DNA of 64,000 bases from Pedobacter sp. GTDB taxonomy: Bacteria; Desulfobacterota; Desulfuromonadia; Desulfuromonadales; Syntrophotaleaceae. Under the pieces are notes generated by a model. The model was not told the DNA's origin. It saw only the letters and a program-made list of their open reading frames with translations, and made no database searches. A program made the position numbers and the translations under genes. The DNA lies in NCBI GenBank assembly GCA_050253415.1, contig JBFWJC010000001.1, positions 712,679-776,678 of the forward strand. Reading direction: 5' to 3'. This document shows, piece by piece, positions 12,476 through 30,109 of the stretch (the first letter of the stretch is position 1; each line of letters starts with the position of its first letter).

Positions 12476-12501
12476 GTAAGTCTAAGGGCTTATAGGAAAA
12501 A

Positions 12502-12829: not shown

Positions 12830-12854
12830 CTGGTATTGCATGTCAGTGTTTATT

Positions 12855-14588: not shown

Positions 14589-14634
14589 TTTGTACTTCCT
14601 CCCAATCTTTTACATCTGGAATGGTTCCGGGTAA

Positions 14635-14731: not shown

Positions 14732-14787
14732 GGTAGTTTCGCATAAATCGCTGATGAAGATGTCAATGAACTTTTCCAAGTAGACAC

Positions 14788-14817
14788 GTTATAACATAAA
14801 ATAGAACGAAAGTTCAA
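14788..14817 (-). promoter_or_regulatory. Putative sigma70 promoter for the aor leader
   Basis: TTGAAC-N18-TATAAC with a TG extended -10. Confidence 0.5.
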
Positions 14818-14974
14818 TATCGGATGGTGTATACATTTTGCGGCGGCGGGTATTTTTTGCAAAAAAACTGTAAGACCTTGAAAACACACTGGAAAAAAAA
14901 TTAAAATTGATAGCAAACAGTGTGGTTTTTCGATCTGTTTTGCGTTGAATGGCGCGTTTTTTTCACAGCTGACG

Positions 14975-15997
14975 TCATAAAAGCAAAAAAGGGATATAAA
15001 AAAATAGACTGCCGAGAAGAAAAAATGGCGAGAGGTCAAAAGATGTTCGCTGCGGTGGGAGGTCGATGGGGGACACCGCGACCGTTGTGATTTTCTCCAT
15101 GAGTTTGGTGGCGACTTTTTCTGGTTGGTTATCGCCCAAATAGAAATAGCTTCCGCCGGTCGCAGCAGCTATTTCTTCAAGGGGGCGTTGATCGAGTCGG
15201 GTTTTAAGGGGAATGTCCTGACTGTCCACATAAAAGCCGTCGATGTCGGTGGCGCCTTTTCTGCGGATGGGAATAAAGACATCGCTGGTATGACCGACTC
15301 CGATGGTGAATACCGGAGTAACGGATCCTGTTCTTCTGGCAAGAGTCTGCAGAAGCGATGACCGGGTATTTTCAGTGTCTTCGCCATCCGTTATGAGAAC
15401 CACCGCTCGCGCCGGGATTTCTGCCTGGCTGTCGACCATCATCATACCACTGTCGATGGCAGCCAACAGATTACTGCCTGATTCCGTCAGATCGCCAAGA
15501 TCGGTATGGGTGACCATGTAACGCAAAAAGCCCAGGTCACGAGTGGGAGAAACAACCTCGATGCCGTTACGCGCAAAAAAGAACAGACCGACTTTCTCTC
15601 CATCAAGACGTTCGACTATGCTCAGAGCCAATCGCCGCGAGGCATTAAGCCGGTTGGAAAGAGGCGTTACGCGCTCTCCAGGTAGCCGTTGCAGGACCAC
15701 ATCCTCGGCCAGCATCGATTTGCTCACATCAATGCCGATGGCCAGCACCAGGTTGTCGCTGATATTCCCCGATCGCGATACGGTAATGCTGGGTCCTGCG
15801 AGGGCGGTCACAAGACTGGCCAGTCCCAGTAGTGGCAGCAGGCTGCGGCCTGTACGCCGCCAAACCGGCCTGTTGCCAGAATCCGCCCGGAACCGACTCC
15901 GTAAACGACCAAGAAAACGTTCCGTGGCCAGAACCCGCCAACCGATCGGAAGGAGTAGCAGGAGCAGCCAGAACATCTGCGGAGAATTGAATCGCAT
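14975..15997 (-). CDS. Membrane-anchored vWA-domain protein (MxaL/BatB-like)
   Basis: N-terminal TM helices, MIDAS DVSKSM, LITDGED, C-terminal DLSPFFL TM helix. Confidence 0.82.
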   Translation of the reverse strand: MRFNSPQMFWLLLLLLPIGWRVLATERFLGRLRSRFRADSGNRPVWRRTGRSLLPLLGLASLVTALAGPSITVSRSGNISDNLVLAIGIDVSKSMLAEDVVLQRLPGERVTPLSNRLNASRRLALSIVERLDGEKVGLFFFARNGIEVVSPTRDLGFLRYMVTHTDLGDLTESGSNLLAAIDSGMMMVDSQAEIPARAVVLITDGEDTENTRSSLLQTLARRTGSVTPVFTIGVGHTSDVFIPIRRKGATDIDGFYVDSQDIPLKTRLDQRPLEEIAAATGGSYFYLGDNQPEKVATKLMEKITTVAVSPIDLPPQRTSFDLSPFFLLGSLFFYIPFLLL

Positions 15998-16006
15998 GTC
16001 AGGGTC

Positions 16007-16807
16007 CTATTTCTCTACCCGGGTTTCCAAAGGAACTCCGGGGGCGAAGCCAGCCACGTCTGGAATAAAAGCTTCGAGCTGTTCCTGAACCTCGGTCAGA
16101 TTTTCCTGCCGGACTTCGCTCAGTCCGATCTTGCGGTATTCGCCGAGGCCGACGATCAATTCCATGTTCCAGCGGGGCAGGGCACGTTCCTGGGAGGAAC
16201 TGCAGGTTGCGTCGACGAGATCGATGGCGGCTTTATAATCATCAATGGCGTCGGACAGGAACTTTGCACCCTTGCGCCCATCCTGTTCAAAATTCAGCAC
16301 GCTGTAGGCAAGCATGACAGACACATTGCCTTTGAGGGTGAGCAGTTTCCAGTCTAGCGATGCAGTTAGCTTTCCCCTGCTTTCCAAGGCTGCGGCGCAA
16401 CTGTCGCGCAGGGCGAGCAATTGTTGGTGAAAAGTCTGCAGTTGATGGCGTTGATCCGAAGCAAGATATCGGTTATTCAAGGCCGCTGAGATTTGCTTGA
16501 AATTGGTAACGGCTTCTTGCCACTGGTTCCAAAGTCGGACGTAGTTGGCCTCGGGTAGCGGTTGGCCAAGAGTTTTCGCCTGGGCGCTGATCTGCTCCAG
16601 TTCGGAAATGACGGCTTGACGGTCCTCGGCTGGGGGCAGGTTTGCCATTCGTGCATTGAGCTTATGCAGGTTTGTCGTTTGTTGCGAACTGTGCCAGTAG
16701 CCGATGGCACCGGCAATCAGCAGCACTATGCCTGCCAATCCCACAGTGCTCAGGGCGATAACTGTGGCGCGTTTGTTTCGCAGAAGGATGTCTGTGAAAG
16801 TAAGCAT
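16007..16807 (-). CDS. Single-TM helical/TPR-like protein (MxaK-like position and tail)
   Basis: N-terminal TM; A..DYKAAI...RWNMEL...IPDVAGFAPGVP resembles the MxaK C-terminus as I recall it. Confidence 0.55.
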   Translation of the reverse strand: MLTFTDILLRNKRATVIALSTVGLAGIVLLIAGAIGYWHSSQQTTNLHKLNARMANLPPAEDRQAVISELEQISAQAKTLGQPLPEANYVRLWNQWQEAVTNFKQISAALNNRYLASDQRHQLQTFHQQLLALRDSCAAALESRGKLTASLDWKLLTLKGNVSVMLAYSVLNFEQDGRKGAKFLSDAIDDYKAAIDLVDATCSSSQERALPRWNMELIVGLGEYRKIGLSEVRQENLTEVQEQLEAFIPDVAGFAPGVPLETRVEK

Positions 16808-16901
16808 GTTTCAGTCCTCGAAGTTGTTGCAAGGCAATTTGTTATACCTTGACCGGTTATTGCCGTGTCCTTTTGGTTTTAACCGAAGCCAGGTGGCTGT
16901 T

Positions 16902-18014
16902 TTAAAGTTTGCGAAGCCGCGGCAGGCTGCGCAGAAGCAGGTGCAGTGCCATAAGTCCAAATCCCATAAGGGCCAGCGTCTGTCGGGTCCAGCGTGGTTG
17001 CAGGGTGATGCGAGTCAGATTCCGATTGCTTTCCAGGATGTCGATCTCTCGGTAGACTTCTTCAATCTGTTCCCGATCCAGACCGCGCGAGGTAACGAAA
17101 ATGCGACCGACGGCAGGTTCGCCGGTTACCGGCTGCATGGCTTTTTCCACCGCTTCGTCGACCTCGCCACCGACCGAAATGATGTAGAAACGCACTCCGA
17201 CCGCTTTCATCAGGGTAATGATGTTGACCAGGTTCGGCAGGGCACCGCTGCGCACGTGGGCGCGCTGGGTCGGTTCGATGCGGCCGTCGGTAAAAAGGAT
17301 AACAGCCATGCCGGTGCCCAGTGCCGCATTGCGGATCTTCTGGGGGATATCGAGCAGTGCTCCCGGTTCGCCGAGCAGAAACTCGCGCATGCCGGCGATC
17401 TGTTCAACGCTCAGGCGGTTTTCCTCGGGCAACATGGAGAAAAATGCCGAAAGGGATAACCATACAGCTTCGGAGGCGTTGGTGCCGCCCCCGGCTCCAA
17501 GTTCCCGGTAGATTCGCGAGTGGTTTTTGCTGCGCACCAGATCGAGTTTGGCTTTGAGCAGATCTTTGTCAAACGTCAGCGGAGCCAGTAGCTTGGCGTA
17601 GCTGGAAAAGGCCACCAAGCCGATGTAATCGTCGCTGCGGCGCATATCGATAAAGGAGCTGATCCCGTCCAGAGCCAGATCGCCCAGAGTCTGATCCGAG
17701 AACCGGCTTACCGGGCGTTTCATGGAGCCGGACAGGTCAAGGGCCAGAAACAGCCATTTCGATTCGATGAATTCCTCTACCGTCTCTTTCGAATAGCCTG
17801 GATTGACCAGGCTAAGGACCAGACAGGCGTATACCAGGCTGAAAAGGATACCGTTGTAATTACGTTTCCAGAATCCCGGCCGCAGACTGACCATGTCCGG
17901 CAAGATGGACGGGAATGGCAGCTTGCGCCGAGTGCGCCGTCGCAGCACCAGGAAAAGGGGTGCCAGCAACAGCAGCAGCAGGGCCAGAGGGTATTGCAGT
18001 TCGAAACCAGGCAT
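16902..18014 (-). CDS. Membrane-anchored vWA-domain protein (MxaC/BatA-like)
   Basis: Start MPGFELQYPLALLLL; MIDAS LDLSGSM, DYIGLVAFSS, APLTFD, LFTDG. Confidence 0.85.
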   Translation of the reverse strand: MPGFELQYPLALLLLLLAPLFLVLRRRTRRKLPFPSILPDMVSLRPGFWKRNYNGILFSLVYACLVLSLVNPGYSKETVEEFIESKWLFLALDLSGSMKRPVSRFSDQTLGDLALDGISSFIDMRRSDDYIGLVAFSSYAKLLAPLTFDKDLLKAKLDLVRSKNHSRIYRELGAGGGTNASEAVWLSLSAFFSMLPEENRLSVEQIAGMREFLLGEPGALLDIPQKIRNAALGTGMAVILFTDGRIEPTQRAHVRSGALPNLVNIITLMKAVGVRFYIISVGGEVDEAVEKAMQPVTGEPAVGRIFVTSRGLDREQIEEVYREIDILESNRNLTRITLQPRWTRQTLALMGFGLMALHLLLRSLPRLRKL

Positions 18015-18040
18015 GGGCACAATCCGGCAGCAGAGGCGGT

Positions 18041-19843
18041 TCAGTGTTTTTCGGGAACGTCCTGCAGCGTTTCTGAGCAGGCCCGCACTTCGGCAATAAG
18101 CTTCCCGGCTTTCTCGGGTAAATCGGCCGGTATGACTGCCTGGTCGCCACGCGCCAGAGCATGATCGATGATGGACAGCACGTCGGCGGCGGATGGGCGG
18201 CATGCGCGGGGCAGTGCATCTTCGATGCGGTGGAAGAAGGCCGTGTGGCTCCCCCCGCGCATGTCCTCGTCAAGCCCTGCAAATTCGGCCAGGTAGTTTT
18301 TCAAGGCTACACCCAAAACGGCCAGTTCTTTTAATCCCAGGTGTTGCTCTGTGGCCAGAACCACTGCGCTTACTGCCTGATATAGGCGGTTCAGGGCGTG
18401 GTTTTCGGGCTGCACGGCCATTTTCTGGCGGCTACGCCGGAGGATGGCTGCCGATGCGCAGACCAGGCCGATGAGAACCAACCCGGCTAACATCAGCATG
18501 GCATGGTGGCGTTTGGCCCCTGTCGCAGCCGCGTCATCCATGCCCGGCAGGGGGGCTGGTTCGGCGACCTGCAGGTCAAATCCCTGCTGGCTTTCCGGGA
18601 TCATCGCGGCGATGCGTACGGGTACTTCGGTAGTCTTGATCAGCTGCACCTTGGTCCTGGGTGCGCCGCTATCTGTGTAATAAACCGGAATGCCCGGGAG
18701 ATTGTATTCGCCGGTGGCATAGATTTTTATCTGTCCGGTAATGCGAATGGGGCTGCGGTTCAGGTCGACGGCGCTTAACGGGACGTCATAGCTGATGTCG
18801 TACAAATTGTGGAAAATGCCACCCGGTTTGAGATTCAGGTTGGCAATGGTGCTCGATTCAATTTTCACCTTGTCGGTAAAGCGAATTTCAAAGGTAAAGG
18901 GGATGGGGGTGCCGGGCATGGCACCATTCATCGCCAGGGAAAACTGTACGCCGACAGGCGGTATCAGAGGCATCAAGACCGGCCAGGCCTGCGCTACGCT
19001 GATGTCCTCGGCCAGCAGGTTGGCAGTCTGCCAGACGCTTTGCCGGCAAGGATCGATGGTGATACTTTGACGGTTGGAGGGCGTTATTTCATCGGTTTCC
19101 ACGGCCTCGATGGCTTGCAGCAGAGCCTGCCGTTGTTGGGGGGAGGCGGCGGTCTTCCAACGGATCGCAATACGTTCCAGGGGAGCATACAGCTGATCAG
19201 CGATTCTCCAGGCAGGGTGTGCGTACTTGACCTGTGGATCCTGCTGTAAACGCGTCATAAGGGTTTGGAAAACTTCCTTCGGCATATCTCTGCGCAGCCG
19301 GTAGGCGGCCATAGCGGGGCCCAACTCCGGGTCGTGAAGGAAGTGACTGAAGTATTCGCCGTACTGTTGGTTGAACGACTCGAAGGATGGCGGTTGGGCA
19401 TTGCTATCCCCCATCTGGAGATTGTCGGATATCTCTGCCGAGTAGCTGTCGGTTGTGTCCTCCGGCAGAGTATCGATTTGCCTCGTTGCATCCATCAATC
19501 GCACCACCAACCAGTCAAGGGCCGGTTGGGGGACGACCCTCTGCCCGTTTTGGTCGTAGAACCATACATCCTCCTGGTAGCTGGACCACAGGCGGTCAAA
19601 GCAGGCGATACGTTCCGCATCAAGGGAGTCTGACGCGGTTTCCGGCTGAGCCTCGGAATCCGTGACTTGTTCGGCGGATACTTCCGCAGTTGTCCCACTT
19701 TGATCAGGCAAGTTTTCTGCTGCCATGGCCGGGACAGCAAACACCAGGAAGAAAACCAGAACCTGGACCAACAGGCTTACCTGCGCAAGGCAGGCAGGGT
19801 GCTTTGTAACTGTACGGGAAGCATTGCGAGGATGTTGTTTCAT
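18041..19843 (-). CDS. Exported membrane-anchored protein (MxaA/BatD-like position)
   Basis: Signal peptide (PAMA), beta-rich GEYNLPGIPVYY region, late TM helix, cytoplasmic helical tail. Confidence 0.6.
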   Translation of the reverse strand: MKQHPRNASRTVTKHPACLAQVSLLVQVLVFFLVFAVPAMAAENLPDQSGTTAEVSAEQVTDSEAQPETASDSLDAERIACFDRLWSSYQEDVWFYDQNGQRVVPQPALDWLVVRLMDATRQIDTLPEDTTDSYSAEISDNLQMGDSNAQPPSFESFNQQYGEYFSHFLHDPELGPAMAAYRLRRDMPKEVFQTLMTRLQQDPQVKYAHPAWRIADQLYAPLERIAIRWKTAASPQQRQALLQAIEAVETDEITPSNRQSITIDPCRQSVWQTANLLAEDISVAQAWPVLMPLIPPVGVQFSLAMNGAMPGTPIPFTFEIRFTDKVKIESSTIANLNLKPGGIFHNLYDISYDVPLSAVDLNRSPIRITGQIKIYATGEYNLPGIPVYYTDSGAPRTKVQLIKTTEVPVRIAAMIPESQQGFDLQVAEPAPLPGMDDAAATGAKRHHAMLMLAGLVLIGLVCASAAILRRSRQKMAVQPENHALNRLYQAVSAVVLATEQHLGLKELAVLGVALKNYLAEFAGLDEDMRGGSHTAFFHRIEDALPRACRPSAADVLSIIDHALARGDQAVIPADLPEKAGKLIAEVRACSETLQDVPEKH

Positions 19844-19873
19844 CGTTTTTTCCTTGGTGTGAACAGGGTCAAA

Positions 19874-20737
19874 TCAGATTCTGGTCGCCAGGCGCCGGGC
19901 AAAAAGGGTGTTGACGCGGGCCTGGATATCCGTAGCACCGACTGGAAGCACCGCGGAGTCGATGCCGACCCCGGCCAGTGCGCGCACGGTGCGTTCCCTG
20001 TCCCGACGCAGCAGGGCGTTGAACTCCTGAAGGCGGGAAAGATCCAGGTCCATTTGCTGGCCCGATTCCATATCCTGAAGCGTCAACAGGCCGCTGTCGA
20101 TGCCGGTCAGCCGGTATTCCGAGTCTTCAAGCACATGCAGGGCCACCATCTCATGGGCGGGAAAACGGCTGTCCGCCGCATCCATCAGACCTTTGAGATA
20201 GCCAAGGTCGGTGTGAAAATCGGAAATGATAACCCCGAGGCAGGAGGCCAGTCGTTTCATGACGAATTCCAGCGCCGGTGCCAGTCGGGTCTGCCGGTTT
20301 TTGGCTGCCGGGGCCTGCTGCAAGGCGTTGACGATGCGGTGAAACTGCCGTGGCGCGGCACTCGGAGGAATCCAGGTCAGGACCTTGTCGGCGAACAGCA
20401 GCAATCCGCAGGGATTGTTGGCGCGCAGGGCGGCGTGGGCCAGGGAAACGGCCAGGTCCTTAGCCATACCGAATTTGTTGCCGAAGTGCATGGAGCGGCT
20501 CACATCGCATATCAGTAGCAGGTTGTAGGCGCTGTCCTTGAGAAACTCACGCACGTGCAGTTCGCCGCTGCGTGCGCAGGCTTTCCAGTCGATACGGCTC
20601 CAGCTGTCGCCGGGCAGGTATTTACGCAACCCCCAGAACTCGTATCCGGTGCCCCGGTCAAGCCCGGCCCAGTCGCCCGCCATGTCGTTACGTGGGGGGT
20701 GTTTGAGCAGGATATCGAAACGATAGGGAGGTTTCAT
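19874..20737 (-). CDS. DUF58 / MxaS-like vWA-related protein
   Basis: GYEFWGLRKYLPGDSWSRIDWKA, DVSRSM, IISDF; follows moxR. Confidence 0.9.
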   Translation of the reverse strand: MKPPYRFDILLKHPPRNDMAGDWAGLDRGTGYEFWGLRKYLPGDSWSRIDWKACARSGELHVREFLKDSAYNLLLICDVSRSMHFGNKFGMAKDLAVSLAHAALRANNPCGLLLFADKVLTWIPPSAAPRQFHRIVNALQQAPAAKNRQTRLAPALEFVMKRLASCLGVIISDFHTDLGYLKGLMDAADSRFPAHEMVALHVLEDSEYRLTGIDSGLLTLQDMESGQQMDLDLSRLQEFNALLRRDRERTVRALAGVGIDSAVLPVGATDIQARVNTLFARRLATRI

Positions 20738-20764
20738 GGCTCAGAGTTGCTCCGTGAGACTGTC

Positions 20765-21784
20765 TTAAGCATAAGGGTCCACCGAACGTACGATATCCCG
20801 CAACAGGTCGGCGGCATGAATGCCCTCGAGAATCGCCGAGTCGCTGAGGATCAGGCGATGTCCGAGAACCTGGGCGGCACAGGCGTCGACATCTTCAAAG
20901 GCCACATAGTCCCGCCCGCGCAAAAAGGCAAATCCTTTGCAATAGGCGATAATATGCTCGCCGGCACGCGGCGAGACTCCCACCGAGACGTAATCGCGTA
21001 CCGCCGGAGGCGCTACGTTTGACTGGGGGCGGGTGCGCAGGCAGATTTCGAGAATATAAGCCACTACGGCCTCTGAAACGGTGACGTGATGAGCAACATG
21101 CTGCTGCATGGCGACGACTTCGTCCGGTTGCAGCAGGCACGGTACCGCTTTTTGCAACTCTTCGAAGTTGGTGCTCTTTTTCCTGAGCAGTTGTTCCTCA
21201 AACTCCCTGGGAGGGTAGGTCAGGGTCACCTTGGCGATAAACCGGTCGAGTTGCGCCTCCGACAGGGGGTAGGTGCCGAGCTGTTCCACCGGATTCATGG
21301 TGGCCAGCACCATGAACAATTCAGGCAGTTGGTATTGGTCGCGGTCGATGCTGACCCGCTTTTCCTGCATCGCCTCAAGCAGCGCCGATTGCACCTTGGG
21401 CGCCGCGCGGTTGATCTCATCAGCCAGCAGAATGTTGCAGAACACCGGCCCCTGATGAAAGGTGAAGGCGCCGGTAGCCTGGTTGAAAACGGTGGTGCCG
21501 GTGATGTCGCTGGGCAGCTTGTCCGGCGTGAATTGAATGCGCTTGAATTCGCCACCGATGGTGCGGGCGAAGGTGCCCACCGTGAGGCTTTTTGCCAGCC
21601 CCGGCACCCCCTCCAGCAGAATGTGACCCCGGGACAGAAGAGTGCAGATAATGGCTTCGATCATCGCTTCCTGGCCGATGATGATTTTGCCGATTTCCTC
21701 TTCGACCTGCTGAATCTTGGTGCGGAACGTTTCCGCCGAAAAGGTTGCTGCAGTCGGGGAGGTATTGTTGGCGGTAGGATTCAT
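20765..21784 (-). CDS. moxR: MoxR-family AAA+ ATPase (MxaR-like)
   Basis: GHILLEGVPGLAKS, RIQFTPD, LLADEINRAAPKVQSALLEAMQE, GTYPLSEAQLDRF; ATG 21784 after GGAGG. Confidence 0.95.
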   Translation of the reverse strand: MNPTANNTSPTAATFSAETFRTKIQQVEEEIGKIIIGQEAMIEAIICTLLSRGHILLEGVPGLAKSLTVGTFARTIGGEFKRIQFTPDKLPSDITGTTVFNQATGAFTFHQGPVFCNILLADEINRAAPKVQSALLEAMQEKRVSIDRDQYQLPELFMVLATMNPVEQLGTYPLSEAQLDRFIAKVTLTYPPREFEEQLLRKKSTNFEELQKAVPCLLQPDEVVAMQQHVAHHVTVSEAVVAYILEICLRTRPQSNVAPPAVRDYVSVGVSPRAGEHIIAYCKGFAFLRGRDYVAFEDVDACAAQVLGHRLILSDSAILEGIHAADLLRDIVRSVDPYA

Positions 21785-21842
21785 GACAGTGCTGCCTCCA
21801 GCTATAACGGTCGTCGACCGGCTGTTGGTCGGTCGAAAAGAT

Positions 21843-22898
21843 TTAGAAAAATACAAATTTGCGGCGGTCACGGATGATCAGGTAGAGAAAAAACGGCCCG
21901 CCGAGCAGTGCGGTCAATACTCCGATACGCAGCCCGCCGCTGCCCCAGACACGCACCACGCAGTCCGAATAGATTACCAGAGCTCCCCCCAGCACACCGG
22001 CGGCAGGGATAAGCACCCGGTTGTCCGAGCCGACAAAGCTGCGCATGATGTGCGGCGCGACCAGGCCTACGAAGCCGATGGCGCCGGATACTGCAATGGC
22101 GCCGCCGGTCAGCAACGCGGAGATAAACAGCAGCATGTTGCGGGATAGGGTTACATTGACGCCGAGGTTGGCGGCGATTTCCTCGCTGAGCATCATGATG
22201 TTGAGATCGCGGGCGTAAAGCATCGACCACAAGGTCCCGATCAGAGTGATGATAAGCACGATATGCACATGCTGCCAACTGCGGTTGGTCAGATCCCCCA
22301 TCAACCAGCCCACGATCTGGCGTGCCATCTCGAACTGGTCCGTCGACAGCACGATGACCAGCGATGTCAGGGCGCCGAAAATAGCATTGAAGGCGATGCC
22401 GGCCAGCAGCAACGTATAGCGCGAGGTCAGTCCGCCGCTGGTGGCGATGCCCAGCACGATCAGCATCGACAAAAAGGCGAACAGGATGGCAAACGACGGT
22501 ACCGCGTAGATGCTGGTGGCGGCCAGACCGGCGTAGATGGCCGTTACCGCACCCAGCGCCGCGCCGGAACTGGTACCGATGACCCCCGGACTGGCCATGG
22601 GGTTTTTGAAGATGCCCTGCATGATGGTCCCCGCGGCGCCCAGCGCGAATCCGACCAACGCACCGGTCAGGGTGCGTGGAACCCGTCCCAGCCAGACGAT
22701 GGCTTCCAAAGCTGGATCCGTCACCATATCGAGACGCAGAACCTTGGCCGCCAGGATGCGGCCGATATCCTGCAGGCTGACCTCCCAGGGGCCGATGCGG
22801 ACCGACAGAAACATGCCGACAAGTAGCAGTGCCAATGCGGCCGAGCATGCCATCAGGCTGGTGATAAAAAAATGCCGGCGATCAGAACGACGATTCAT
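21843..22898 (-). CDS. FecCD/BtuC-type ABC permease (probably cobalamin)
   Basis: RVPRTLTGALVG, QGIFKNPMASP, GAIGFVGLVAPH, GGPFF. Confidence 0.9.
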   Translation of the reverse strand: MNRRSDRRHFFITSLMACSAALALLLVGMFLSVRIGPWEVSLQDIGRILAAKVLRLDMVTDPALEAIVWLGRVPRTLTGALVGFALGAAGTIMQGIFKNPMASPGVIGTSSGAALGAVTAIYAGLAATSIYAVPSFAILFAFLSMLIVLGIATSGGLTSRYTLLLAGIAFNAIFGALTSLVIVLSTDQFEMARQIVGWLMGDLTNRSWQHVHIVLIITLIGTLWSMLYARDLNIMMLSEEIAANLGVNVTLSRNMLLFISALLTGGAIAVSGAIGFVGLVAPHIMRSFVGSDNRVLIPAAGVLGGALVIYSDCVVRVWGSGGLRIGVLTALLGGPFFLYLIIRDRRKFVFF

Positions 22899-23955
22899 AA
22901 ATTAATCCCGCCAGGTAGTTGATGCTGGCGACCAAATATTGTGAAGAACTAAGTAAGTAAACCGTTGGCATCTTGCGGATGTTCTTCTGCCGTACCGCGC
23001 GTGCCGTGGCCAGGATCTTCTGGCTGTAAAGTTGCAGGTCAAAGGTGCTTTCTTCCGGCACGATAATCACATCCGGATTCCATTGCAGCAGGGTTTCGTA
23101 GTCAATCTGCTTGAAGTTGTGAATCCCCTTAACTGCGGCGATGTTGGTCACTCCCAAAGCCTGGCACATGCTGTTAAATGTGGTGCCCGAACCAGCCACG
23201 TAGGCCATATTATCGTAATACAGCACGGTCGGCGGTTTGCTCACGGGCCCTCTTCGCTGCCGCACCACTGCTTGGATATCGCGCAGCTTTTCGGTCATGA
23301 CGGAAACCAGGCGCTGCGCCGAGGCTTCTTCGCCGGTCAGGCGTCCGGCCAGCACAATCTGATCCTTGATGGCATCAAGATCGTCGAAAAACCCGAACTG
23401 CGCCAAAGGCACATGCGCGGTGCGCAGCTGGTGCAGAAAGTTTTCGTTGGAAAAGAACGACGCCAACACCAGATCCGGACGGTAGCCGATGACGATTTCC
23501 GCATCGTCGGTGCCGTAGGTCGGCAGGTCGGCCGGCAGCAGCGGTGCCAAAAACGAGAACTGTCGATCCTTGCAGCTTTTGTGCACAGCGACCAGGCGCT
23601 CATGCGGTACAATGGCCCACAAAATTTCCGTCAGACCTGTTGCGTGGGGAATAATGCGCTGCGGCTGCCGCGCAAGGGTAATCGATCGTTCCTCATCATG
23701 TTTCTGGTCTGAAACGAAATCATAGCGTACAAAGCGATAGGATACGGTGCGGGGATAGCTCTCCGCCGTAACAGGTGTCGGTTGCCGGGTGTCGCTCAGT
23801 GATCCCATCAGCGCATCCATCTCCAGAGGAAACTTGCGGGCACCGCGGGCGTTTTCCGCCGCGGTACAAGCGCCTCCCAGCAGCATCGTCAGCAACGCAG
23901 CTCCCAAAATCCCTGTCAAGGCATGCTTAACGATAGAACAACAGCGAAACGCCAT
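22882..23955 (-). CDS. BtuF/FepB-type periplasmic binding protein (start uncertain)
   Basis: QPQRIIP..TEILWAI, EIVIGYRPDLVL, GSGTTF, ETLLQWNPDVII. Confidence 0.8.
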   Translation of the reverse strand: MAFRCCSIVKHALTGILGAALLTMLLGGACTAAENARGARKFPLEMDALMGSLSDTRQPTPVTAESYPRTVSYRFVRYDFVSDQKHDEERSITLARQPQRIIPHATGLTEILWAIVPHERLVAVHKSCKDRQFSFLAPLLPADLPTYGTDDAEIVIGYRPDLVLASFFSNENFLHQLRTAHVPLAQFGFFDDLDAIKDQIVLAGRLTGEEASAQRLVSVMTEKLRDIQAVVRQRRGPVSKPPTVLYYDNMAYVAGSGTTFNSMCQALGVTNIAAVKGIHNFKQIDYETLLQWNPDVIIVPEESTFDLQLYSQKILATARAVRQKNIRKMPTVYLLSSSQYLVASINYLAGLIYESSF

Positions 23956-24703
23956 GTTCGGTTGCGATTTCCTCCACGCCGACATGGAAAACCTCCTTGA
24001 TGCGTTGTTCGGCAAATCCTTGTTCGGCCTTGCCGTGGTAATAGACGCTGCCCTGTTGCAGCAGGGTTACGGTGTCGCAGTAACGTCGCGCCAGGTCGAG
24101 ATCGTGGATACTGATGAGAATGGTTTTACCCGCATCGCGCAGGCTGGTCAGCAATTCCATGATTTCGAGCTTGTGCAGAATATCCAGGGCGCTGGTCGGC
24201 TCGTCGAGCAGAATGATCGGTGCTTCGGTGGCCAGCGCGCGCGCTAGACTGACCAACTGCGCCTCGCCGCCCGACAGTTCGTTGATAAGCCGGTTGCGGA
24301 AGATGTCGGTGCCGGTGACCACCAGGGCCTGGTCGATGATATCCATATCTTTCTGGCGCAGCCACTGCAGCCGTTTCAGGTGCGGATGGCGGCCCATGGC
24401 GACAAAGTCGGATACCATAATGGAAAAATCGAGGCGCGTGTCCTGCTGTACCAGGGTCACCATCTGGCTGAGAGATTTGCGGGGGATGCGGCGATAATCC
24501 CGCCCCTCGATCAAAACCCGGCCGTTTTGCGGTTCCCAGATGCGGCAGATGTTGCGCAGCAGCGTGCTCTTGCCGGAACCGTTGGGCCCGATCAGTCCAT
24601 GGATGCCCCCGGCGGCAAAGTGGCAGCTGATGTCTTTAAGAATAGCATGGCCACCGATGGAAAAATCGAGCTTGTCAATCTGCAGGATCGGTTGATCGGT
24701 CAT
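23927..24703 (-). CDS. BtuD/FecE-type ABC ATPase
   Basis: GPNGSGKS, LSGGE, LLDEPTSALD, IHDLDLA. Confidence 0.92.
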   Translation of the reverse strand: MTDQPILQIDKLDFSIGGHAILKDISCHFAAGGIHGLIGPNGSGKSTLLRNICRIWEPQNGRVLIEGRDYRRIPRKSLSQMVTLVQQDTRLDFSIMVSDFVAMGRHPHLKRLQWLRQKDMDIIDQALVVTGTDIFRNRLINELSGGEAQLVSLARALATEAPIILLDEPTSALDILHKLEIMELLTSLRDAGKTILISIHDLDLARRYCDTVTLLQQGSVYYHGKAEQGFAEQRIKEVFHVGVEEIATEHGVSLLFYR

Positions 24704-25521
24704 TCTTCCTCGTGTTCCCGGCTTTTAAGAGTCAGTTTCCAGGCCAGCGGCAAGCTGAATTTGGATACGGCGGTCAGCAGCGTGCCGCACAGCACGATGC
24801 TCCACATGATGCCGTGCCCCAGCCGGTCCTGAAACAGGCCGGTGGTTAAAGTCGTTCCCCATAACAGCGTCAACCCGGCGAATAACTGAATATTCTGGCT
24901 CATGGCATGAATGCCCCAGAAATTTTCGGAAATCCGGCTCAATCGGCCATTGCGCAATTTAATTTCAATGAGTTTAAACCAGATGCGTCCTTCCGCCACC
25001 TGGGCCGAGCCGTCGCAGATGTGATGCAACAGGTACAGGGCAATGAGGACATAACGTCCCGCAGCCATATCGCCGAACAGCCCGGTGAACAAGGGCGGGT
25101 AACACAGCAACAGCAATATCGCTCCCAGCGCCTGCCCACCACCCACCAGGGCCATGGCTCGCACCAGGCCTCGTACCTGGGTGTTGATATCCGGAAAGCT
25201 TTCCAGATAATCGACAAACGAAGAAACCTTGACGTTGCTGATAAACGTGATCCCCGGATAAAAGTATTTTGTCAGCACGCCAAGAATCGCCGCCACCCTG
25301 AATTCGGTCTGGGCCATGGAGAACATGGTGTAGAGCACCGCCCCTTCAAGAATGCTCTTGCCCAAAGTGTACAACAGGTTGCCGATCTCGCCATAGCGAT
25401 AATAAGGACTTAGCCCCATGGCCTGGAACCAGAGGGAAGTTTTATGCGCGACATCGCGCCACAGGGAGCGGGGTGCTGGGCGTGGATTGGCGATGGCAGT
25501 TTTCACGGCGGTCTCAGGCAT
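24700..25521 (-). CDS. Uncharacterised ~6-TM membrane protein, copy 1 (half-MFS-like)
   Basis: Hydrophobic ORF; close paralog at 55379-56206; ATGA overlap with the ABC ATPase. Confidence 0.8.
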   Translation of the reverse strand: MPETAVKTAIANPRPAPRSLWRDVAHKTSLWFQAMGLSPYYRYGEIGNLLYTLGKSILEGAVLYTMFSMAQTEFRVAAILGVLTKYFYPGITFISNVKVSSFVDYLESFPDINTQVRGLVRAMALVGGGQALGAILLLLCYPPLFTGLFGDMAAGRYVLIALYLLHHICDGSAQVAEGRIWFKLIEIKLRNGRLSRISENFWGIHAMSQNIQLFAGLTLLWGTTLTTGLFQDRLGHGIMWSIVLCGTLLTAVSKFSLPLAWKLTLKSREHEEE

Positions 25522-25691
25522 AGGCGTATCCCGGTTGCGTTAGAAAGCCGGGCCGCTTGAAGGCGGCCCGACCTGGAATTTTGCAGAGTCCAGCGCTTCG
25601 ACCGAATGCGGGGGGTCGAAAAGCTAATGGTGAGGTGGGGGGAAGAGATGGCCCGGGGCGAACCCCGGGCCGATTACAAAGGGTAGAGAGC

Positions 25692-27959
25692 TTACATTTC
25701 CTTCAGCAGTTTAACCGTCTGGCGGGCTGCTTCAGCAGGAACCAGACCGGTATCGGAAATACCGGACAAAACCTTGGAAGAGTCGTGGTCGACAGTACCT
25801 GCTTTAGCCCAGGTGCTGGGAGCGACTTTGACCAGATAAGCGGAGAAGGCATGATGGCCGCTACCCGGGCGTTCGCCGATGAGATGAACAATGGCCTTAG
25901 GAGTGGTGCCAGCTTTGGTAAACAAAACTTCACCAGCTTTGTAGCCAGCGCGAACGCGGCCGCCGGTCACGACGATGTTTTTATCGGACAGGGTCAATCC
26001 GGCTTTTTTGCACTGTTTTTTCAGTTCGTTCAGGTAAGGCATCAGGTGCCCATCATCCATGATCGCCTTGGCGTTCAGACCGTCGGAGATGACAACCTGT
26101 ACGTCAGGGGCTTTGTTGCCCCAAGAGGCAGACAGTTTGCCCAGGGTGGCAACAGCCGCGTCGGACAACTCTTCACCGGTGCCCGGTGCGGAGATGTAGT
26201 TTTCGCGATCGTGAGCCTGAGATTTAATGCTCACGGCATTGGGGATGGAACCGATGAATTCAGGAGTGAACTCGGCCCACAGGCTGATTTTGGCGTCGTC
26301 ATACAGGTCGTGGATACGCTTGTTGGTGACAGGTTCCAGATCCCATACGTTTTCGCCATAGCCTACGGCCAGGTCGACACCGCGGCTGCGTACGTTTTTA
26401 ATGGATTGCTGGCCTTCAGCATAGATTTCCTTGAAGGAGCGGGTGTCACCTTTGGCCTGACGGAATTTGTAGTAAACCCAGGCAGGATCGCCAAAGTGCT
26501 TGGTCGGTTTGCCGTTGGCGTCGATGACTTCGATTTTTTTGTAGAAGTCCCACATGGCGTCGTTGACTTTAAAGCCGAATTTTTCGCGCAGGCGCACGTG
26601 GTCCTGGAAACCGGTGGTCAGGTAGCTGAGCATCGGGTCGTTACGGGTCGGCAGAGCCATCAGGTAGGCCGGGTTGGCCGGGGCGATCTGATCCTGGCAC
26701 CAGGCCAGGTCGTCGAGGGTTACAGGCATATGCAGGGTCGAGCAGATGTCGAGACCCAGCACCAGGCCGTGCAGTTTACCCATGACGATGTCTTCCAGAC
26801 AGGCGCGTACCAGCTGTTCGCGGGTTTTGAAGACCTCGGGACCGATGAAGCCGGCCACGTCGTTGACGTGCAGCCATACCTGATCCTCGGTGACGCCCTT
26901 GGCTTTGGCGATTTCCTGTTTCAGGGCGCGAGAGAACCCGTATTTACGGGACTCGTGGACGACCATGTCGAAGCCGTGGCCGTGACCGTTGGTGTAGTCG
27001 GCACCCTGGCCGGTTTCGAAATAGAGGCCGTAGGGACCCTTACGCATTTTTGCGTAGTCGATCATTTTCTGGATGGTCAGGTCGAAGGTCTTGTTGGCGC
27101 TTTCGGTACCGGCGAGGCTCTGGAACCAGATAGCGGTGGAGCCGGGCTTGGCTTCTTCCGCGGCAGCCTGACCGTCGATGTGGGACAAAACACACCAGGG
27201 GATGGTTTTTTCCAGGCCGAAAGCATCGACGATTTCTTTAAGACCTTCTTCGACGCGCAGGGTTGCTTCGAGTTGGCTGTCGACCGGGTTGGTACCGATG
27301 ACGATGTCACCGACGCCATAGGCGAAGCCATTAAGCGTCTGCATCTGAATGTCTTCTTTGTTGTCGGTCGGCGAGTTGGGCTGAATGCGGGCGCCGATGT
27401 AACCCTTAGCGCCGATTTTGGTGCCGGGCAGGGTGTTGAAAATCTTCTGGCCAATGCGGGTCAGTTCGGCGTTGGACATCAGTTTGACCACGGAACCGAT
27501 CACATCGCTGTGCAGACCGCCCATAATGGCTTTGATGTCTGCTTCGGGCTTGGTGAGCAGAAAGTTTTTCAGCTCGCCCATGGTCATGTTTTTGATTTTG
27601 TTGTATTTAGCCTTGTCGGTGGTTTGGCGGATCAGGGTGTCCTGGCCATCCACGAACAGCGAATGATCGTTGAGGTCCTTGATCTTGGTGTTGGCCAGCA
27701 ATTTGCGGGCGTTTTCGCGGTCCGCTTCGGTGTCTGCCGCTACCCCGAGGGCCTCGTCGCCTTCTTTAAAGGCATTGGCGGCGCCGATTACCTGCTGATA
27801 GGTGGTTTGGTCAAACTTCCCTTTGGTGCGATTGATGTACTGCATGACGTCTTCACCGGGCTTGACGCTGCCGATGGTGACGGCTCCGGCCATGCTGGCC
27901 AGAAAGGTCATTACCAGTGCGCCGGTAATGCCTGCCACGAATTTCCCCTTTTGTAACAT
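25692..27959 (-). CDS. eutBC: Fused ethanolamine ammonia-lyase large+small subunit with signal peptide, copy 1
   Basis: EutB motifs RIQPN, GDIVIGTNPV, LYFETGQG, VNDVAGFIGPE, DPMLSY; EutC motifs VVISDGL, GRVRAG, LIGERPG. ATG 27959 after GGAGG; N-terminus MLQKGKFVAGITGALVMTFLASMAGA. Confidence 0.92.
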   Translation of the reverse strand: MLQKGKFVAGITGALVMTFLASMAGAVTIGSVKPGEDVMQYINRTKGKFDQTTYQQVIGAANAFKEGDEALGVAADTEADRENARKLLANTKIKDLNDHSLFVDGQDTLIRQTTDKAKYNKIKNMTMGELKNFLLTKPEADIKAIMGGLHSDVIGSVVKLMSNAELTRIGQKIFNTLPGTKIGAKGYIGARIQPNSPTDNKEDIQMQTLNGFAYGVGDIVIGTNPVDSQLEATLRVEEGLKEIVDAFGLEKTIPWCVLSHIDGQAAAEEAKPGSTAIWFQSLAGTESANKTFDLTIQKMIDYAKMRKGPYGLYFETGQGADYTNGHGHGFDMVVHESRKYGFSRALKQEIAKAKGVTEDQVWLHVNDVAGFIGPEVFKTREQLVRACLEDIVMGKLHGLVLGLDICSTLHMPVTLDDLAWCQDQIAPANPAYLMALPTRNDPMLSYLTTGFQDHVRLREKFGFKVNDAMWDFYKKIEVIDANGKPTKHFGDPAWVYYKFRQAKGDTRSFKEIYAEGQQSIKNVRSRGVDLAVGYGENVWDLEPVTNKRIHDLYDDAKISLWAEFTPEFIGSIPNAVSIKSQAHDRENYISAPGTGEELSDAAVATLGKLSASWGNKAPDVQVVISDGLNAKAIMDDGHLMPYLNELKKQCKKAGLTLSDKNIVVTGGRVRAGYKAGEVLFTKAGTTPKAIVHLIGERPGSGHHAFSAYLVKVAPSTWAKAGTVDHDSSKVLSGISDTGLVPAEAARQTVKLLKEM

Positions 27960-28082
27960 TCTGTTACCTCCGTCTCGTTTGATGGGGGTGCTATCCGGTC
28001 TGCGACAAACGTCGCAGGCGGAGCATGATGAGGTTAAAGTGTGGGAGATGTCTTTGATGATCAGCAACACCTCCCACAGCGC

Positions 28083-29201
28083 TTACTTACGCAGCTGCTT
28101 TGCTGCTTCCCACATTTCGTTGAAGGCCTGCTCGGTCTCGTCGCTGAGAACTCGCCACAGGGCTACGGTTTTGAAGTAGGCTTCGTCGCCTACGTGGAAC
28201 ATAGCTTTTTCCTCGGCATTGAGGATGTCGCCGGTGTCGGCCATGACAGGTGAAACACCCTGAGATTTGACAACGTCAGCCTGGCGTGCGGGATCGAGGG
28301 AGAAGTTGATCCATTCTTCGGCCAGGGTTTTGGTCATGTCCTTGGCGCCGGCGCCCACATACCAAGCGTCGATCCAGGCTGTACCGCCTTCGGCAGGGGT
28401 TGCCAGGCGCCAGTTGCCGCCTTTAAGGTTGGCGGCCTGGGCGGCGAAACCCCAGGTGGTGGCCAGTGCCAGTTCGGGGAATTCATCCGGATTGGCGGCG
28501 CCGTCCCACAGGCTCTTGGCATTTTTGGCCAGATCGTTGAGTTTTTCCTGAACCTTGGCGCGGTCGAGCTTGTTGATGTCGAAGATATCTTCATAGCCGT
28601 AACCGAGCGCCAGAGCCGAGATCCAGACATTAACCTTGGGGAAGTTATTGTTGATGGTGTACTGACCGGCATACTGGGGTTCCCACAGTACGTTCCAGCT
28701 GGTCGGGGCTTGGGCTACCTTGTCGCGGTTATATGCCAGACCGTAGGGGCCGCAGTTGTAAGGCACTCCGTAGCGCACGCCGTTATAGAAAGGCGTCTGG
28801 TCGTTGCGGAATACTTCCATCATTTTGGCCAGGTTGGGGATGTTGTTCACATCCACGGGCTGCACGTATTGCTGGCCTTCCTGGTAGGAGAAGAAACGCG
28901 GGATCTTGGGCAGTTCGATCGGCGGAGAGATCAAATCCGCGGTGTTGTCTTTGACGGCCTGGAAGAATTCGTCCTGGTCGGTCGGGTTGAAAATCTCGAC
29001 ATTGACATCGACGTTGTATTTGTCTTTGACCAGTTTCTGGAAATCCTCTACGTAGGGTTTGGCATAGCCGCCCCAGCAGGTAATGCGCAATGTTTCTTTT
29101 TGGGTCTCTGCCTTTTTGGTGCAGGCGGGGGTCAACAACAGGGCGCCTGCGGCCACTACGGCTGCGGTTGCGGAAACGGCTCCCCACAAAGTTTTCTTCA
29201 T
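28083..29201 (-). CDS. PotD/PotF-like solute-binding lipoprotein, copy 1
   Basis: Lipobox-like TPAC, LRITCWGGY, YGLAYNRD, PTSWNVLW, PAEGGTAWID, AEEWINF. Confidence 0.85.
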   Translation of the reverse strand: MKKTLWGAVSATAAVVAAGALLLTPACTKKAETQKETLRITCWGGYAKPYVEDFQKLVKDKYNVDVNVEIFNPTDQDEFFQAVKDNTADLISPPIELPKIPRFFSYQEGQQYVQPVDVNNIPNLAKMMEVFRNDQTPFYNGVRYGVPYNCGPYGLAYNRDKVAQAPTSWNVLWEPQYAGQYTINNNFPKVNVWISALALGYGYEDIFDINKLDRAKVQEKLNDLAKNAKSLWDGAANPDEFPELALATTWGFAAQAANLKGGNWRLATPAEGGTAWIDAWYVGAGAKDMTKTLAEEWINFSLDPARQADVVKSQGVSPVMADTGDILNAEEKAMFHVGDEAYFKTVALWRVLSDETEQAFNEMWEAAKQLRK

Positions 29202-29371
29202 GATGTTCCTCCTGGCATGCGTCGTTTTCAGGAAAAGGGTGGTCCGGTTTGTACGCCAAAAATTCCGAGTTGCCTTTGTGGGCGAGCTGCGGAAATGGGG
29301 GCGAGGGCAATTCGTTCGCCTCTCGCCCCGTTGGTTGATCGGGGCGGTTGACGCCCATACTTCTTCTGAAC

Positions 29372-30109
29372 TTAGAAAGTAAAGGTCAGGTTAAGGGCCG
29401 CGGCCGATTCGGTGTCGATGAGCTCCTTGGCAGCGCTGCTGATCGGCGACGAGAAGATGACGATCGGGCTGAGGGTCAGCTGGTCGGTCAGGGCGTAATC
29501 AAGGCTGGCGCTCAGTTCGTAGTTATGCCATCCGGAGTAGTCGGCTACGGTGCCATCGGCATGCTGGTTGTAAGAAACCAGGGCGCCGAGATTCAAAGTA
29601 GTGTTGGGGACCCACTGGGTAAGGTCGAAGCTGTGGCTGACGTCAAAGCTGAAGAACAGGCCGTCTTCTTCGGCGCGGTCCCAGTCGTAAGAGATTTTCA
29701 GGTTCGGCGAAAGAAGGGTGTTGAGGGTGACGGTCGCGAACAGTTCGTTGGTGTCTTCCCCTTCGATCATGTACCAGATATCTCCGATCGATACGGAAAT
29801 AAGATCATTCACATCAAAGGCATAGGTCAGGATGACGTCGGTTTCGTTGAGCTCGCCAGCTTTCCAGTTGTCGCCACTGGTCAGCTGCCAGTTGTGCCAG
29901 GTGCTGAGGGTGAAACCGCCGCCGAGGGTCAGGTCCATGCCTGCCTGGATGGTCGGGCGGGAGTCACTCAGGTTAAATCCACGCCACATGTACTTGTCCC
30001 AGATGCCGGCGTAGGCATCGCCTTCAACTTCAATGGACGCCTGGGCCTGGCCGATAAAGCCGGCAGTCATCATAAAGACGGCGAGTAACAACACACTCCA
30101 CTTTTTCAT
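29372..30109 (-). CDS. Outer-membrane beta-barrel / putative porin (TorF-like), copy 1
   Basis: Signal peptide AQA, DKYMWRG, alternating beta strands, C-terminal LTFTF. Confidence 0.8.
   Translation of the reverse strand: MKKWSVLLLAVFMMTAGFIGQAQASIEVEGDAYAGIWDKYMWRGFNLSDSRPTIQAGMDLTLGGGFTLSTWHNWQLTSGDNWKAGELNETDVILTYAFDVNDLISVSIGDIWYMIEGEDTNELFATVTLNTLLSPNLKISYDWDRAEEDGLFFSFDVSHSFDLTQWVPNTTLNLGALVSYNQHADGTVADYSGWHNYELSASLDYALTDQLTLSPIVIFSSPISSAAKELIDTESAAALNLTFTF

Follow-up and report, generated by a model that had tools for sequence, protein, structure and literature searches.

A conserved transporter and MoxR-vWA gene module beside an ethanolamine ammonia-lyase with an export signal: a candidate system for adenosylcobalamin supply outside the cytoplasm

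Here, we present an analysis of a gene run in a 64,000-nucleotide stretch of DNA from Pedobacter sp. (Desulfobacterota, Syntrophotaleaceae; assembly GCA_050253415.1, contig JBFWJC010000001.1, positions 712,679 to 776,678; hereafter, the window). In this run, a gene for a fused EutB-EutC ethanolamine ammonia-lyase with an N-terminal export signal is followed by ten genes (hereafter, the module) for a predicted membrane carrier, a Btu-like ATP-binding cassette (ABC) transporter, and a cassette of MoxR, DUF58, and vWA proteins. The conservation of this arrangement and its near-confinement to genomes with the exported enzyme suggest a dedicated system that keeps a B12 enzyme working outside the cytoplasm.

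Genes and proteins of the run

Based on Pfam and NCBIfam matches and on the translations of open reading frames (ORFs), 13 co-directional genes of the minus strand are tightly packed at 14975-30109, as had been stated in a preliminary description of this DNA. From the gene for TM273 through that for vWA3 (both described below), the gaps are 94 nt at most, and several genes overlap. The lyase gene (25692-27959) encodes a fused EutB-EutC protein of 755 aa (PF06751, E = 3.9e-146; PF05985, E = 2.5e-33). The two domains score 487.7 and 115.8 bits (Pfam cut-offs, 25 and 25.8), and the NCBIfam EutB subfamily model is matched at 645.9 bits versus a cut-off of 554. The protein shares both domains with the canonical EutB/EutC of Escherichia coli, Salmonella, and Listeria (PDB 3ABO and 2QEZ), and in a phmmer alignment to 3abo_A, the E. 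coli EutB residues R160, Q162, N193, E287, and D362, which we take to be the substrate-binding and catalytic residues, are identical in the window lyase. The enzyme is expected to depend on adenosylcobalamin. Canonical ethanolamine ammonia-lyase consists of two separate subunits, is cytoplasmic or encapsulated, and is served by the reactivase EutA. In contrast, the window lyase is a single chain that carries a Sec-type signal peptide of 26 aa and a further stretch of ~27 aa, and the genome, which is 100% complete, contains only a 45-position partial match to EutA, in agreement with the absence of EutA in the preliminary description, and no bacterial microcompartment shell gene.

Signal peptides were classed by inspection and hydropathy. 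The best-supported start of the lyase, M37 of the long ORF, replaces the one given in the preliminary description and yields MLQKGKFVAGITGALVMTFLASMAGA followed by VTIG, i.e., a signal of 26 residues (codons 27882-27959) that can be divided as MLQKGKF/VAGITGALVMTFL/ASMAGA into a basic n-region, a hydrophobic core, and a c-region ending in an AxA site. Among the 120 best homologues (62-90% identical, ~755 aa), the signal stretch varies in sequence with its n-h-c properties kept, and conservation sets in at VTI..VKPGEDVF; a few entries are N-terminally truncated. The repetition of this pattern agrees with the earlier reading of EutBC as a protein with a signal peptide. The alignment to E. coli EutB begins at residue 55, so that both the signal and the conserved stretch of ~27 aa are additional to the canonical enzyme. 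The twin-arginine translocation (Tat) motif S/T-R-R-x-F-L-K is absent from both lyase copies of the window, and twin-arginine motifs (SRRKF, SRREF, PRRAFL, and SRRDFF) stand in place of the Sec signal in related clades. We infer that the fusion of EutB and EutC creates an intramolecular cofactor pocket, which would aid the Tat export of a loaded monomer as well as assembly after Sec export. A microcompartment-targeting peptide was also considered for the N-terminus and was rejected given the lack of a shell gene and the Tat motifs of related clades. In the literature that we searched, which leaves most subscription-journal papers outside, neither an exported ethanolamine ammonia-lyase nor a link between such an enzyme and MoxR is described.

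The Tat-type lyases form a varied group. They include those of the loci L053 (3968-6289), L054 (241-2562), L051 (13722-16073, minus strand), and L049 and many of L056-L097 (L, G, C, and f designate the loci, genomes, contigs, and families of our collection), and they fall into at least four N-terminal variants. In the variant of L077 and L078, a Cys soon follows the hydrophobic core, and a Tat lipoprotein is possible. The fused lyase of L114 (~630-2826), which is sister to that of L087 in the Tat clade, has no hydrophobic N-terminus (MSDQRLKRETMSIEEATISIE...); this may reflect a reversion to the cytoplasm or a wrong start.

Two genes of the run precede eutBC. The first (29372-30109) encodes a candidate outer-membrane porin of the Gcw_chp/TorF family with a signal peptide (PF09694, E = 1.8e-9; NCBIfam TIGR02001, 42.7 bits, under the cut-off of 47.15), and a gene of this kind adjoins EutBC repeatedly, in many loci. 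The second (28083-29201) encodes a PotD/PotF-like periplasmic binding protein (SBP_bac_6; PF13343, E = 2.6e-48), the N-terminal signal of which ends in LLLTPAC and which is found near EutBC in other loci too; no cognate permease for this protein lies nearby. An ORF of 154 aa without an assigned family (30106-30570, minus strand) overlaps the start of the porin gene by 4 nt and may be part of the operon; its identity is 93% in L001 and only 30% in L002.

The module itself opens with the gene for TM273 (24700-25521), a 273-aa protein with six transmembrane (TM) segments and without a Pfam or NCBIfam match, which is the first gene after eutBC whenever it is present. Its 24 orthologues share many invariant polar residues, e.g., YRYGE.GN and H..DGS.Q..EGR.WFK. 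The AlphaFold2 model of TM273 consists of six long helices (predicted local distance difference test [pLDDT], 86.3), and in a fold search with VIA-align over 48,161 chains, the top matches were all transporters of the major facilitator superfamily (MFS), each aligned through one six-helix half (best match: Z 17.2, 207 residues, root mean square deviation 3.0; ~40 rows with Z >=12). Foldseek returned nothing from the PDB at E <= 1e-3 for the same model, and the ESM Atlas gave no usable match. MFS proteins proper have two bundles in a 12-TM chain; TM273 is a single 6-TM bundle, and based on its predicted structure we read it as a half-size MFS-like carrier.

Next follow the genes for the ABC ATPase of a type II (Btu/Fec-like) importer (23927-24703; PF00005), a BtuF-like binding protein (22882-24015; Peripla_BP_2, PF01497, E = 2.6e-24 over residues 127-350), and a BtuC/FecCD-type permease (21843-22898; PF01032, E = 3.1e-88). 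The three components are those of BtuCDF, and the best NCBIfam matches are corrinoid models, i.e., a corrinoid ABC ATPase model for the ATPase (230.7 bits) and BtuC for the permease (262 bits). However, these scores are under the equivalog cut-offs of 537 and 461, respectively, the BtuF model is not matched by the Peripla_BP_2 protein, and the genes have a lyase gene on one side, a MoxR cassette on the other, and no cobalamin riboswitch of their own. The binding protein also has an N-terminal extension of ~100 aa with a signal or anchor segment at residues 28-54. Type II ABC systems are importers, and control of BtuCDF by a cobalamin riboswitch is common, not obligatory.

The remaining six genes make up the cassette. 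They encode a MoxR-type AAA+ ATPase (20765-21871; PF07726 AAA_3, E = 6.8e-60, with AAA_lid_2; 201.1 bits for PF07726 and 57.9 bits for PF17863), a DUF58 protein with a vWA-like domain (19874-20737; PF01882, E = 4.3e-37), the 600-aa bitopic protein unk600 (18041-19843; no family match), the BatA-like membrane protein vWA2 (16902-18014; PF13519), the 266-aa helical protein TM266 (16007-16807; only a sub-threshold match to 4HB_MCP_1), and the BatB-like membrane protein vWA3 (14975-15997; PF13519). The start of the first vWA gene was moved from its earlier position to ~18014, as set by the orthologues. MoxR, encoded beside the DUF58 and vWA genes, has Walker A (GVPGLAKS) and Walker B (LLADE) motifs. 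A search of the window's genome identified this as its only DUF58/MoxR cassette and a single DUF58 gene. The metal ion-dependent adhesion site (MIDAS) motif is kept in the orthologues of all three vWA-type proteins (DUF58, DxSxS in 12/12; vWA2, DLSGS in 6/6; vWA3, DxSKS in 7/7).

Topology was predicted from hydropathy combined with the positive-inside rule. Because they lack TM segments, MoxR and DUF58 are predicted to be cytoplasmic. Both vWA2 and vWA3 have the layout TM segment, Arg-rich loop, TM segment, vWA domain, and C-terminal TM segment, and this order places the vWA domain in the periplasm. For Borrelia BB0173, a Bat-type vWA protein, a periplasmic orientation of the vWA domain was shown experimentally, according to the part of the study available to us (PMC5700661). 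Scores against the NCBIfam models of BatA (vWA2, 47.6 bits; cut-off, 380) and BatB (vWA3, 46.7 bits; cut-off, 350) are low. TM266, whose position is kept in eight loci, has one TM segment at residues 12-40 that anchors it N-in and a helical part predicted to be periplasmic. The TM/TPR-like protein of the preliminary description thus retained its TM anchor and lost its repeats: neither a TPR nor a BatD domain was detected by Pfam in TM266 or unk600 even at E up to 1, and TM273, unk600, and TM266 had nothing usable in Pfam (E up to 1) or NCBIfam. The predicted layout of unk600 is a signal or anchor segment, a periplasmic portion of ~400 residues, and a TM helix that leads into a tail of ~130 aa in the cytoplasm. 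Its AlphaFold2 model (pLDDT 72.9) contains an Ig-like sandwich (residues 295-414), a periplasmic alpha/beta part, and a cytoplasmic helical bundle; fold matches were at the level of single domains, with Z of 8-10, a level common for such folds that permits no assignment. On the predicted structure, unk600 is a candidate for a trans-membrane coupler. A complex prediction for EutBC (residues 28-755) and the periplasmic part of unk600 (residues 150-416) scored 0.00, which counts neither way.

Conservation of the module with the exported lyase

To sample the lyase at the level of whole genomes, which replaced a contig search with a single protein that had given just five loci, we used 401 genomes of the phylum. 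Lyase matches (E <= 1e-20) were found in 32 genomes; 20 of these, including the window's own, encode the fused exported form at >=56% identity, and the matches in the remaining 12 are 31-37% identical. Up to 20 kb around 20 such lyase genes were fetched and searched with the window proteins by tblastn. The 11-gene order from EutBC to vWA3 is the same in the window and in seven further loci (L002, L040, L041, L042, L043, L044, and L050), in which identity to the window is 60-88% for EutBC, 47-84% for TM273, 48-83% for MoxR, and 23-55% for unk600. Six of these loci are distant from the window (lyase identity, 60-65%) and represent three families of the sample (f40, f50, and f65). In 20 loci, window included, the permease gene adjoins EutBC or TM273 and is followed by >=700 nt of sequence; the next gene is MoxR in 18 of them, the exceptions being L037 (G326) and L047 (G150).

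The two proteins without relatives in the family databases serve as markers of the module. The gene for unk600 is present in 12 of the 401 genomes, 11 of which also encode the exported lyase, and TM273 is present in 15, with the exported lyase in 13. The exceptions, G273 (720 contigs) and G374 (290), are fragmented assemblies from one genus, in which the lyase is carried by the other sampled members that have module genes. A search for vWA2 in ten genomes returned strong orthologues only in G390 and G273. Divided by signal type, five of the 20 lyase-bearing genomes are Tat-type (G082, G240, G296, G356, and G392) and 15 are Sec-type. The module is present at least in part in 15/15 Sec-type genomes, with a cassette marker in 12/15, and orthologues of TM273, unk600, or vWA proteins were found in 0/5 Tat-type genomes. 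Based on the gene order at large divergence, the near-exclusive co-occurrence, and the absence from Tat-type genomes, we regard it as well supported and highly probable that the module is functionally linked to the exported lyase.

In G289 (C1:171139-179379), the lyase gene next to the module is only a fragment and contains a TGA, and TM273 is in two pieces; an intact lyase gene is present on another contig. Two TM273 matches (G083:C29:14985-15719 and G241:C5:26265-26996) contain one internal TGA each, which may be due to a sequencing error, to read-through, or to overlap with the following gene.

Flanking genes, riboswitches, and the second lyase copy

Unless stated otherwise, the window genes and riboswitches described in this section lie on the minus strand. 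On the 3' side of the cassette, a gene for an aldehyde:ferredoxin oxidoreductase (AOR) was identified by Pfam (12855-14588). Directly ahead of it is a molybdenum cofactor (Moco)/tungsten riboswitch (14622-14740; Rfam RF01055, 61.1 bits), which marks a separate control point and puts the last catabolic step under its own cofactor-sensing control. A hairpin (12805-12831) follows the AOR gene and is the only one that looks strong; scans for promoters and terminators gave 12 and 25 hits versus 8.1 and 20.4 in shuffled sequences, which is not above shuffles. By hydropathy, AOR has no signal peptide. Its counterpart in Pelobacter carbinolicus was reported in analyses of soluble and cytoplasmic fractions, and the part of that article available to us contains no data on the lyase (PMC4275255).

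Beyond the AOR gene, a cobalamin riboswitch (12268-12447; Rfam RF00174, 102.8 bits) precedes the genes for a TonB-dependent receptor (10194-12128; Pfam Plug and TonB_dep_Rec) and TonB (9204-10166; Pfam TonB_C). The entire anaerobic cob pathway is encoded upstream of the run, including the adenosyltransferase CobA (45497-46027); the riboswitch-bearing receptor gene, the complete cob operon, and the module are all part of the same run of 43 genes. Within or beside the cob genes lie those for a membrane protein with a Gate (nucleoside-recognition) domain (37537-38733), a radical SAM/SPASM protein (40916-42346), and a B12-binding radical SAM protein with DUF4080 (61133-62890).

Upstream of the cob genes is a second four-gene core of porin, binding protein, EutBC1, and TM275 (55379-60901), which is without ABC or MoxR genes of its own and is older than the module-bearing copy. 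EutBC1 is 71% identical to EutBC2, the lyase of the module, and TM275 is a paralogue of TM273 with 65% identity. A cobalamin riboswitch (55083-55266) lies between TM275, the last gene of this core, and the first cob gene; being 3' of the core, it leaves these lyase genes upstream of the B12-repressed part of the run. No cobalamin riboswitch was found by Rfam ahead of the TM273, ABC, or MoxR genes of the window. Across 14 other loci with the module (~274 kb), the sole one is in L116, far upstream and on the opposite strand. The Btu-like system thus does not resemble a scavenging importer that is shut off by B12, and it is placed for expression together with the lyase.

The porins encoded at 29372-30109 and 59990-60901 both belong to the TorF/Gcw_chp family. 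In P. carbinolicus, proteins without a known function flank both lyase clusters and a third paralogue adjoins an ammonium transporter, according to the accessible part of PMC3543383; if these proteins are of the porin family of the window, this would hint at a porin for small amines. Second, module-less Sec-type lyase copies in other genomes (L045, L048, and L052, at G045:C5, G241:C62, and G289:C48) adjoin AOR and subunits resembling those of complex I (NADHdh, Oxidored_q6, Complex1_30kDa/49kDa, and Proton_antipo_M), which suggests a membrane-bound Ech/Mbh-type hydrogenase that uses ferredoxin reduced by AOR.

The sole RNA runs that were found, three marine-sediment metatranscriptome runs of one study, each contained 0.06-0.07 of the sampled words. 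Contigs from these runs match the AOR, lyase, binding-protein, and porin genes at 90-99% identity (12000-31000), and a few short ones match the DUF58 and ATPase genes; among the contigs listed, none spans the lyase gene and module genes, and contigs of this kind cannot show a transcript or its level. At such identity, they indicate that close relatives are present in the RNA libraries of that habitat.

Possible roles of the module and relation to known systems

We propose that ethanolamine would enter through the TorF-type porin, that the fused EutB-EutC would be exported unfolded by Sec and be active in the periplasm, and that acetaldehyde would diffuse inward to the cytoplasmic tungsten AOR encoded next door. 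Because a Sec substrate is unable to carry adenosylcobalamin along and the periplasm is free of ATP, we suggest that the ten genes after eutBC represent a cofactor-supply module. TM273, as a half-MFS protein, would be a candidate for transport across the inner membrane, corrinoid would be bound and re-imported by the Btu-like ABC system, and cytoplasmic MoxR and DUF58 would drive the insertion or removal of the cofactor at the lyase via unk600, vWA2, and vWA3. Based on the parts, their predicted topology, and the analogy to MoxR-vWA systems, we assign a probability of about 0.5 to the reading in which the lyase leaves the cytoplasm unfolded and its adenosylcobalamin is supplied, loaded, or recycled by the module. 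More specifically, and only tentatively, a cobalamin cycle across the inner membrane could replace EutA. Adenosylcobalamin made in the cytoplasm would be exported by a TM273 dimer and inserted into apo-EutBC by the vWA proteins, powered via unk600 by ATP hydrolysis at MoxR/DUF58; after suicide inactivation, the same machine would pull out the damaged corrinoid, which the Btu-like system would re-import and CobA would re-adenosylate. Lineages that switched to Tat would load the cofactor in the cytoplasm and could have dispensed with the module. We consider this complete cycle rather improbable.

Several observations weigh against a cofactor-supply role. The cassette was not found in 8 of the 20 lyase-bearing genomes, so that a universal need for it is not indicated. 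The co-occurrence of cassette and exported lyase, which the preliminary description had named as a check, is largely borne out, and the reading given there is partly supported: a coupling of cytoplasmic ATP to the exported lyase by the MoxR/vWA cassette would fit the co-occurrence and the predicted topology. In three of the eight, the Sec-type genomes G150, G215, and G326, TM273 and/or ABC genes are present without a cassette marker, and the Sec-type G401 (via L004; completeness not known) lacks both TM273 and a vWA2 orthologue. The genomes with a lyase and no module argue that the module is an accessory of particular lyase lineages rather than a universal requirement. Moreover, import by a type II ABC system is not in itself helpful to a periplasmic enzyme, we know of no exporter of adenosylcobalamin, and TM273 has no assigned substrate. 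Finally, gene content, signal peptides, predicted topology, synteny, and the restricted distribution are what the analysis shows, whereas lyase export, what each transporter carries, and how the cassette might act on the lyase are what we infer.

The comparison of Sec- and Tat-type lyases is likewise limited by ancestry. A metagenome scan with N-terminal alignment added 80 loci, which were pooled with the genome loci. Counting loci with a complete lyase gene and >=600 nt downstream, with near-identical contigs included, the module lies downstream of 0/24 Tat-type versus 28/41 non-Tat lyase genes, a contrast that cannot be claimed as independent support because the Tat-type rows are clustered in a module-less clade. 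In a FastTree phylogeny of 77 lyases, 27 of the 30 Tat rows fall within one 34-row clade, no member of which, Sec or Tat, has an adjacent module; the other three form a basal branch of the tree. Five changes of signal type provide only 3-4 independent pairs, and a sign test (p = 1) has no power. Thirteen of the 41 Sec-type loci have no module downstream, and some of the module-less Sec genes of the Tat-rich clade are second copies in genomes with the module beside the other copy (G045 and G241). The contrast looks like the pattern expected if a folded, Tat-exported lyase brings its cofactor along and a Sec-exported, unfolded one needs help once outside. Among the neighbours of Tat-type lyase genes, only AOR is recurrent (8/39 loci), and no alternative accessory gene was found.

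The main rival is that the ABC system, TM273, and the cassette serve corrinoid or cobalt uptake and salvage and are merely co-expressed with the lyase, with MoxR and the vWA proteins assembling or gating the transporter. This explanation, which we consider doubtful, would account for the corrinoid and BtuC models being nearest to the ATPase and the permease and for the location of the riboswitch-bearing TonB-dependent receptor gene and the cob operon in the same 43-gene run; it is also the reading given in the accessible part of PMC3543383, in which the lack of cbiMNOQ is noted. However, neither the window nor the 14 other loci have a cobalamin riboswitch before the module, TM273 and unk600 keep to genomes with the exported lyase (13/15 and 11/12) although the use of B12 is far wider, and Tat-type lyase genomes, which need B12 equally, lack the module (0/5). 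In addition, tblastn searches of the six distant 20-kb loci with the full order identified lyase, AOR, or binding protein and no CbiJ. Somewhat less likely still is that the cassette acts as a chaperone for the folding, oligomer assembly, or membrane docking of the lyase, e.g., by building a hexamer or tethering it, with no role in cofactor handling and with the ABC system and TM273 serving separately. The synteny and phyletic data agree with such a chaperone equally well, folding and assembly of a Sec substrate have to follow export, and MoxR-vWA pairs are described as general remodelling chaperones (Snider and Houry 2006, as cited in the accessible part of PMC5700661). What argues for a cofactor is that the cassette accompanies a Btu-like transporter in 18/20 loci; moreover, Sec-type lyases without a cassette exist (G326, G150, G215, and G401).

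The two other rivals concern the premises of a link between the module and an exported enzyme. To our knowledge, every characterised ethanolamine ammonia-lyase is cytoplasmic or resides in a microcompartment, and the hydrophobic N-terminal stretch could in principle be an anchor or an artefact of an enzyme facing the cytoplasm, with TM273 and the binding proteins importing ethanolamine; uptake via a binding protein and a multi-TM protein was assumed in PMC3543383, in the part accessible to us. We give this option very little weight, as basic residues precede the hydrophobic core, sequence conservation begins with the mature protein just after the AxA site, related clades have Tat motifs where the Sec signal would be, and the genome has no microcompartment shell genes. 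Equally remote is a chance placement, beside the lyase gene, of a generic Bat-like operon for envelope functions or aerotolerance. Its domain content and predicted topology match the Bat operons of Bacteroides, Borrelia, and Leptospira (PMC5700661, in part), and there are weak NCBIfam matches to BatA and BatB; yet the 11-gene order is kept in six distant loci of three families at 60-65% lyase identity and cassette orthologues are restricted to lyase genomes, which together rule out chance adjacency in our view.

Parts of this system have precedents. The closest analogue is mxaRSACKL, which serves a periplasmic enzyme and for which the gene order and "Ca2+ insertion functions" are given in the available part of PMC3615186. 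As had been noted in the preliminary description, the order of gene types is the same, i.e., MoxR, DUF58, an unassigned protein, vWA, an unassigned protein, and vWA, downstream of a Sec-exported cofactor enzyme; the two were compared by order alone, and in an NCBIfam scan, the window proteins matched no Mxa-named model. The systems differ in that the client is the pyrroloquinoline quinone/Ca2+ methanol dehydrogenase in one case and an adenosylcobalamin radical enzyme in the other, and in that the window unit includes a Btu-like ABC importer and a half-MFS protein. The comparison relies on what we take to be the domain types of MxaC and MxaL. More simply, the cassette can be described as a Bat-like MoxR/DUF58/vWA operon: like BB0170-BB0176, it combines MoxR, DUF58, two membrane vWA proteins with the vWA domain predicted to face the periplasm, a large bitopic protein, and an anchored protein of helical structure (PMC5700661, in part). 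In contrast to Bat operons, it has no detected BatD or TPR protein and its BatA and BatB scores are far under the cut-offs, and whereas Bat operons have no known client, it goes with a single enzyme family.

As a kind, MoxR-vWA chaperones for the maturation of metalloenzymes are known already. CbbQ/CbbO, NorQ/NorD, CoxD/CoxE, and CobS/CobT resemble the window cassette in that a MoxR ATPase and vWA adaptors with a MIDAS motif are encoded beside the client gene. However, these pairs have the cytoplasm as their site of action or, in the case of membrane proteins, the cytoplasmic face, whereas in the window a periplasmic location is predicted for the vWA domains and the cofactor of the client is organic. 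The cluster itself is already in print with another interpretation (PMC3543383, in part). For P. carbinolicus (now Syntrophotalea carbinolica), that 2012 article describes duplicate fused eutBC genes with adjoining genes for binding and multi-TM proteins, cob genes between the eutBC copies, and no eutA, and reads them as a cytoplasmic lyase with substrate uptake and coordinated cobalamin uptake; in the accessible part, "signal peptide" is used three times, each time of other proteins. Between eutBC2 of the window and the S. carbinolica entry, identity is 71%, and the window is not from that strain. The new elements are the client, a radical enzyme of the adenosylcobalamin class that has an export signal, and the Btu-like transporter and half-MFS protein with which the cassette is coupled.

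Adenosylcobalamin radical enzymes have been treated as strictly cytoplasmic or as residents of microcompartments that need ATP-driven reactivases. A family with an export signal raises the questions of how a large and fragile organic cofactor reaches an enzyme outside the cytoplasm and how this cofactor is maintained there, and a module restricted to this lyase family provides concrete candidates for each step. No cobamide exporter is known, according to the accessible part of PMC13532332, and TM273 is a possible one. The module also offers a client for a Bat-type MoxR/vWA operon, a gene set that is widespread, and periplasmic deamination of ethanolamine would be an alternative to microcompartments for the handling of acetaldehyde in anaerobic sediments. 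If the module acts as we suggest, a B12 enzyme would join the clients of MoxR-vWA chaperones.

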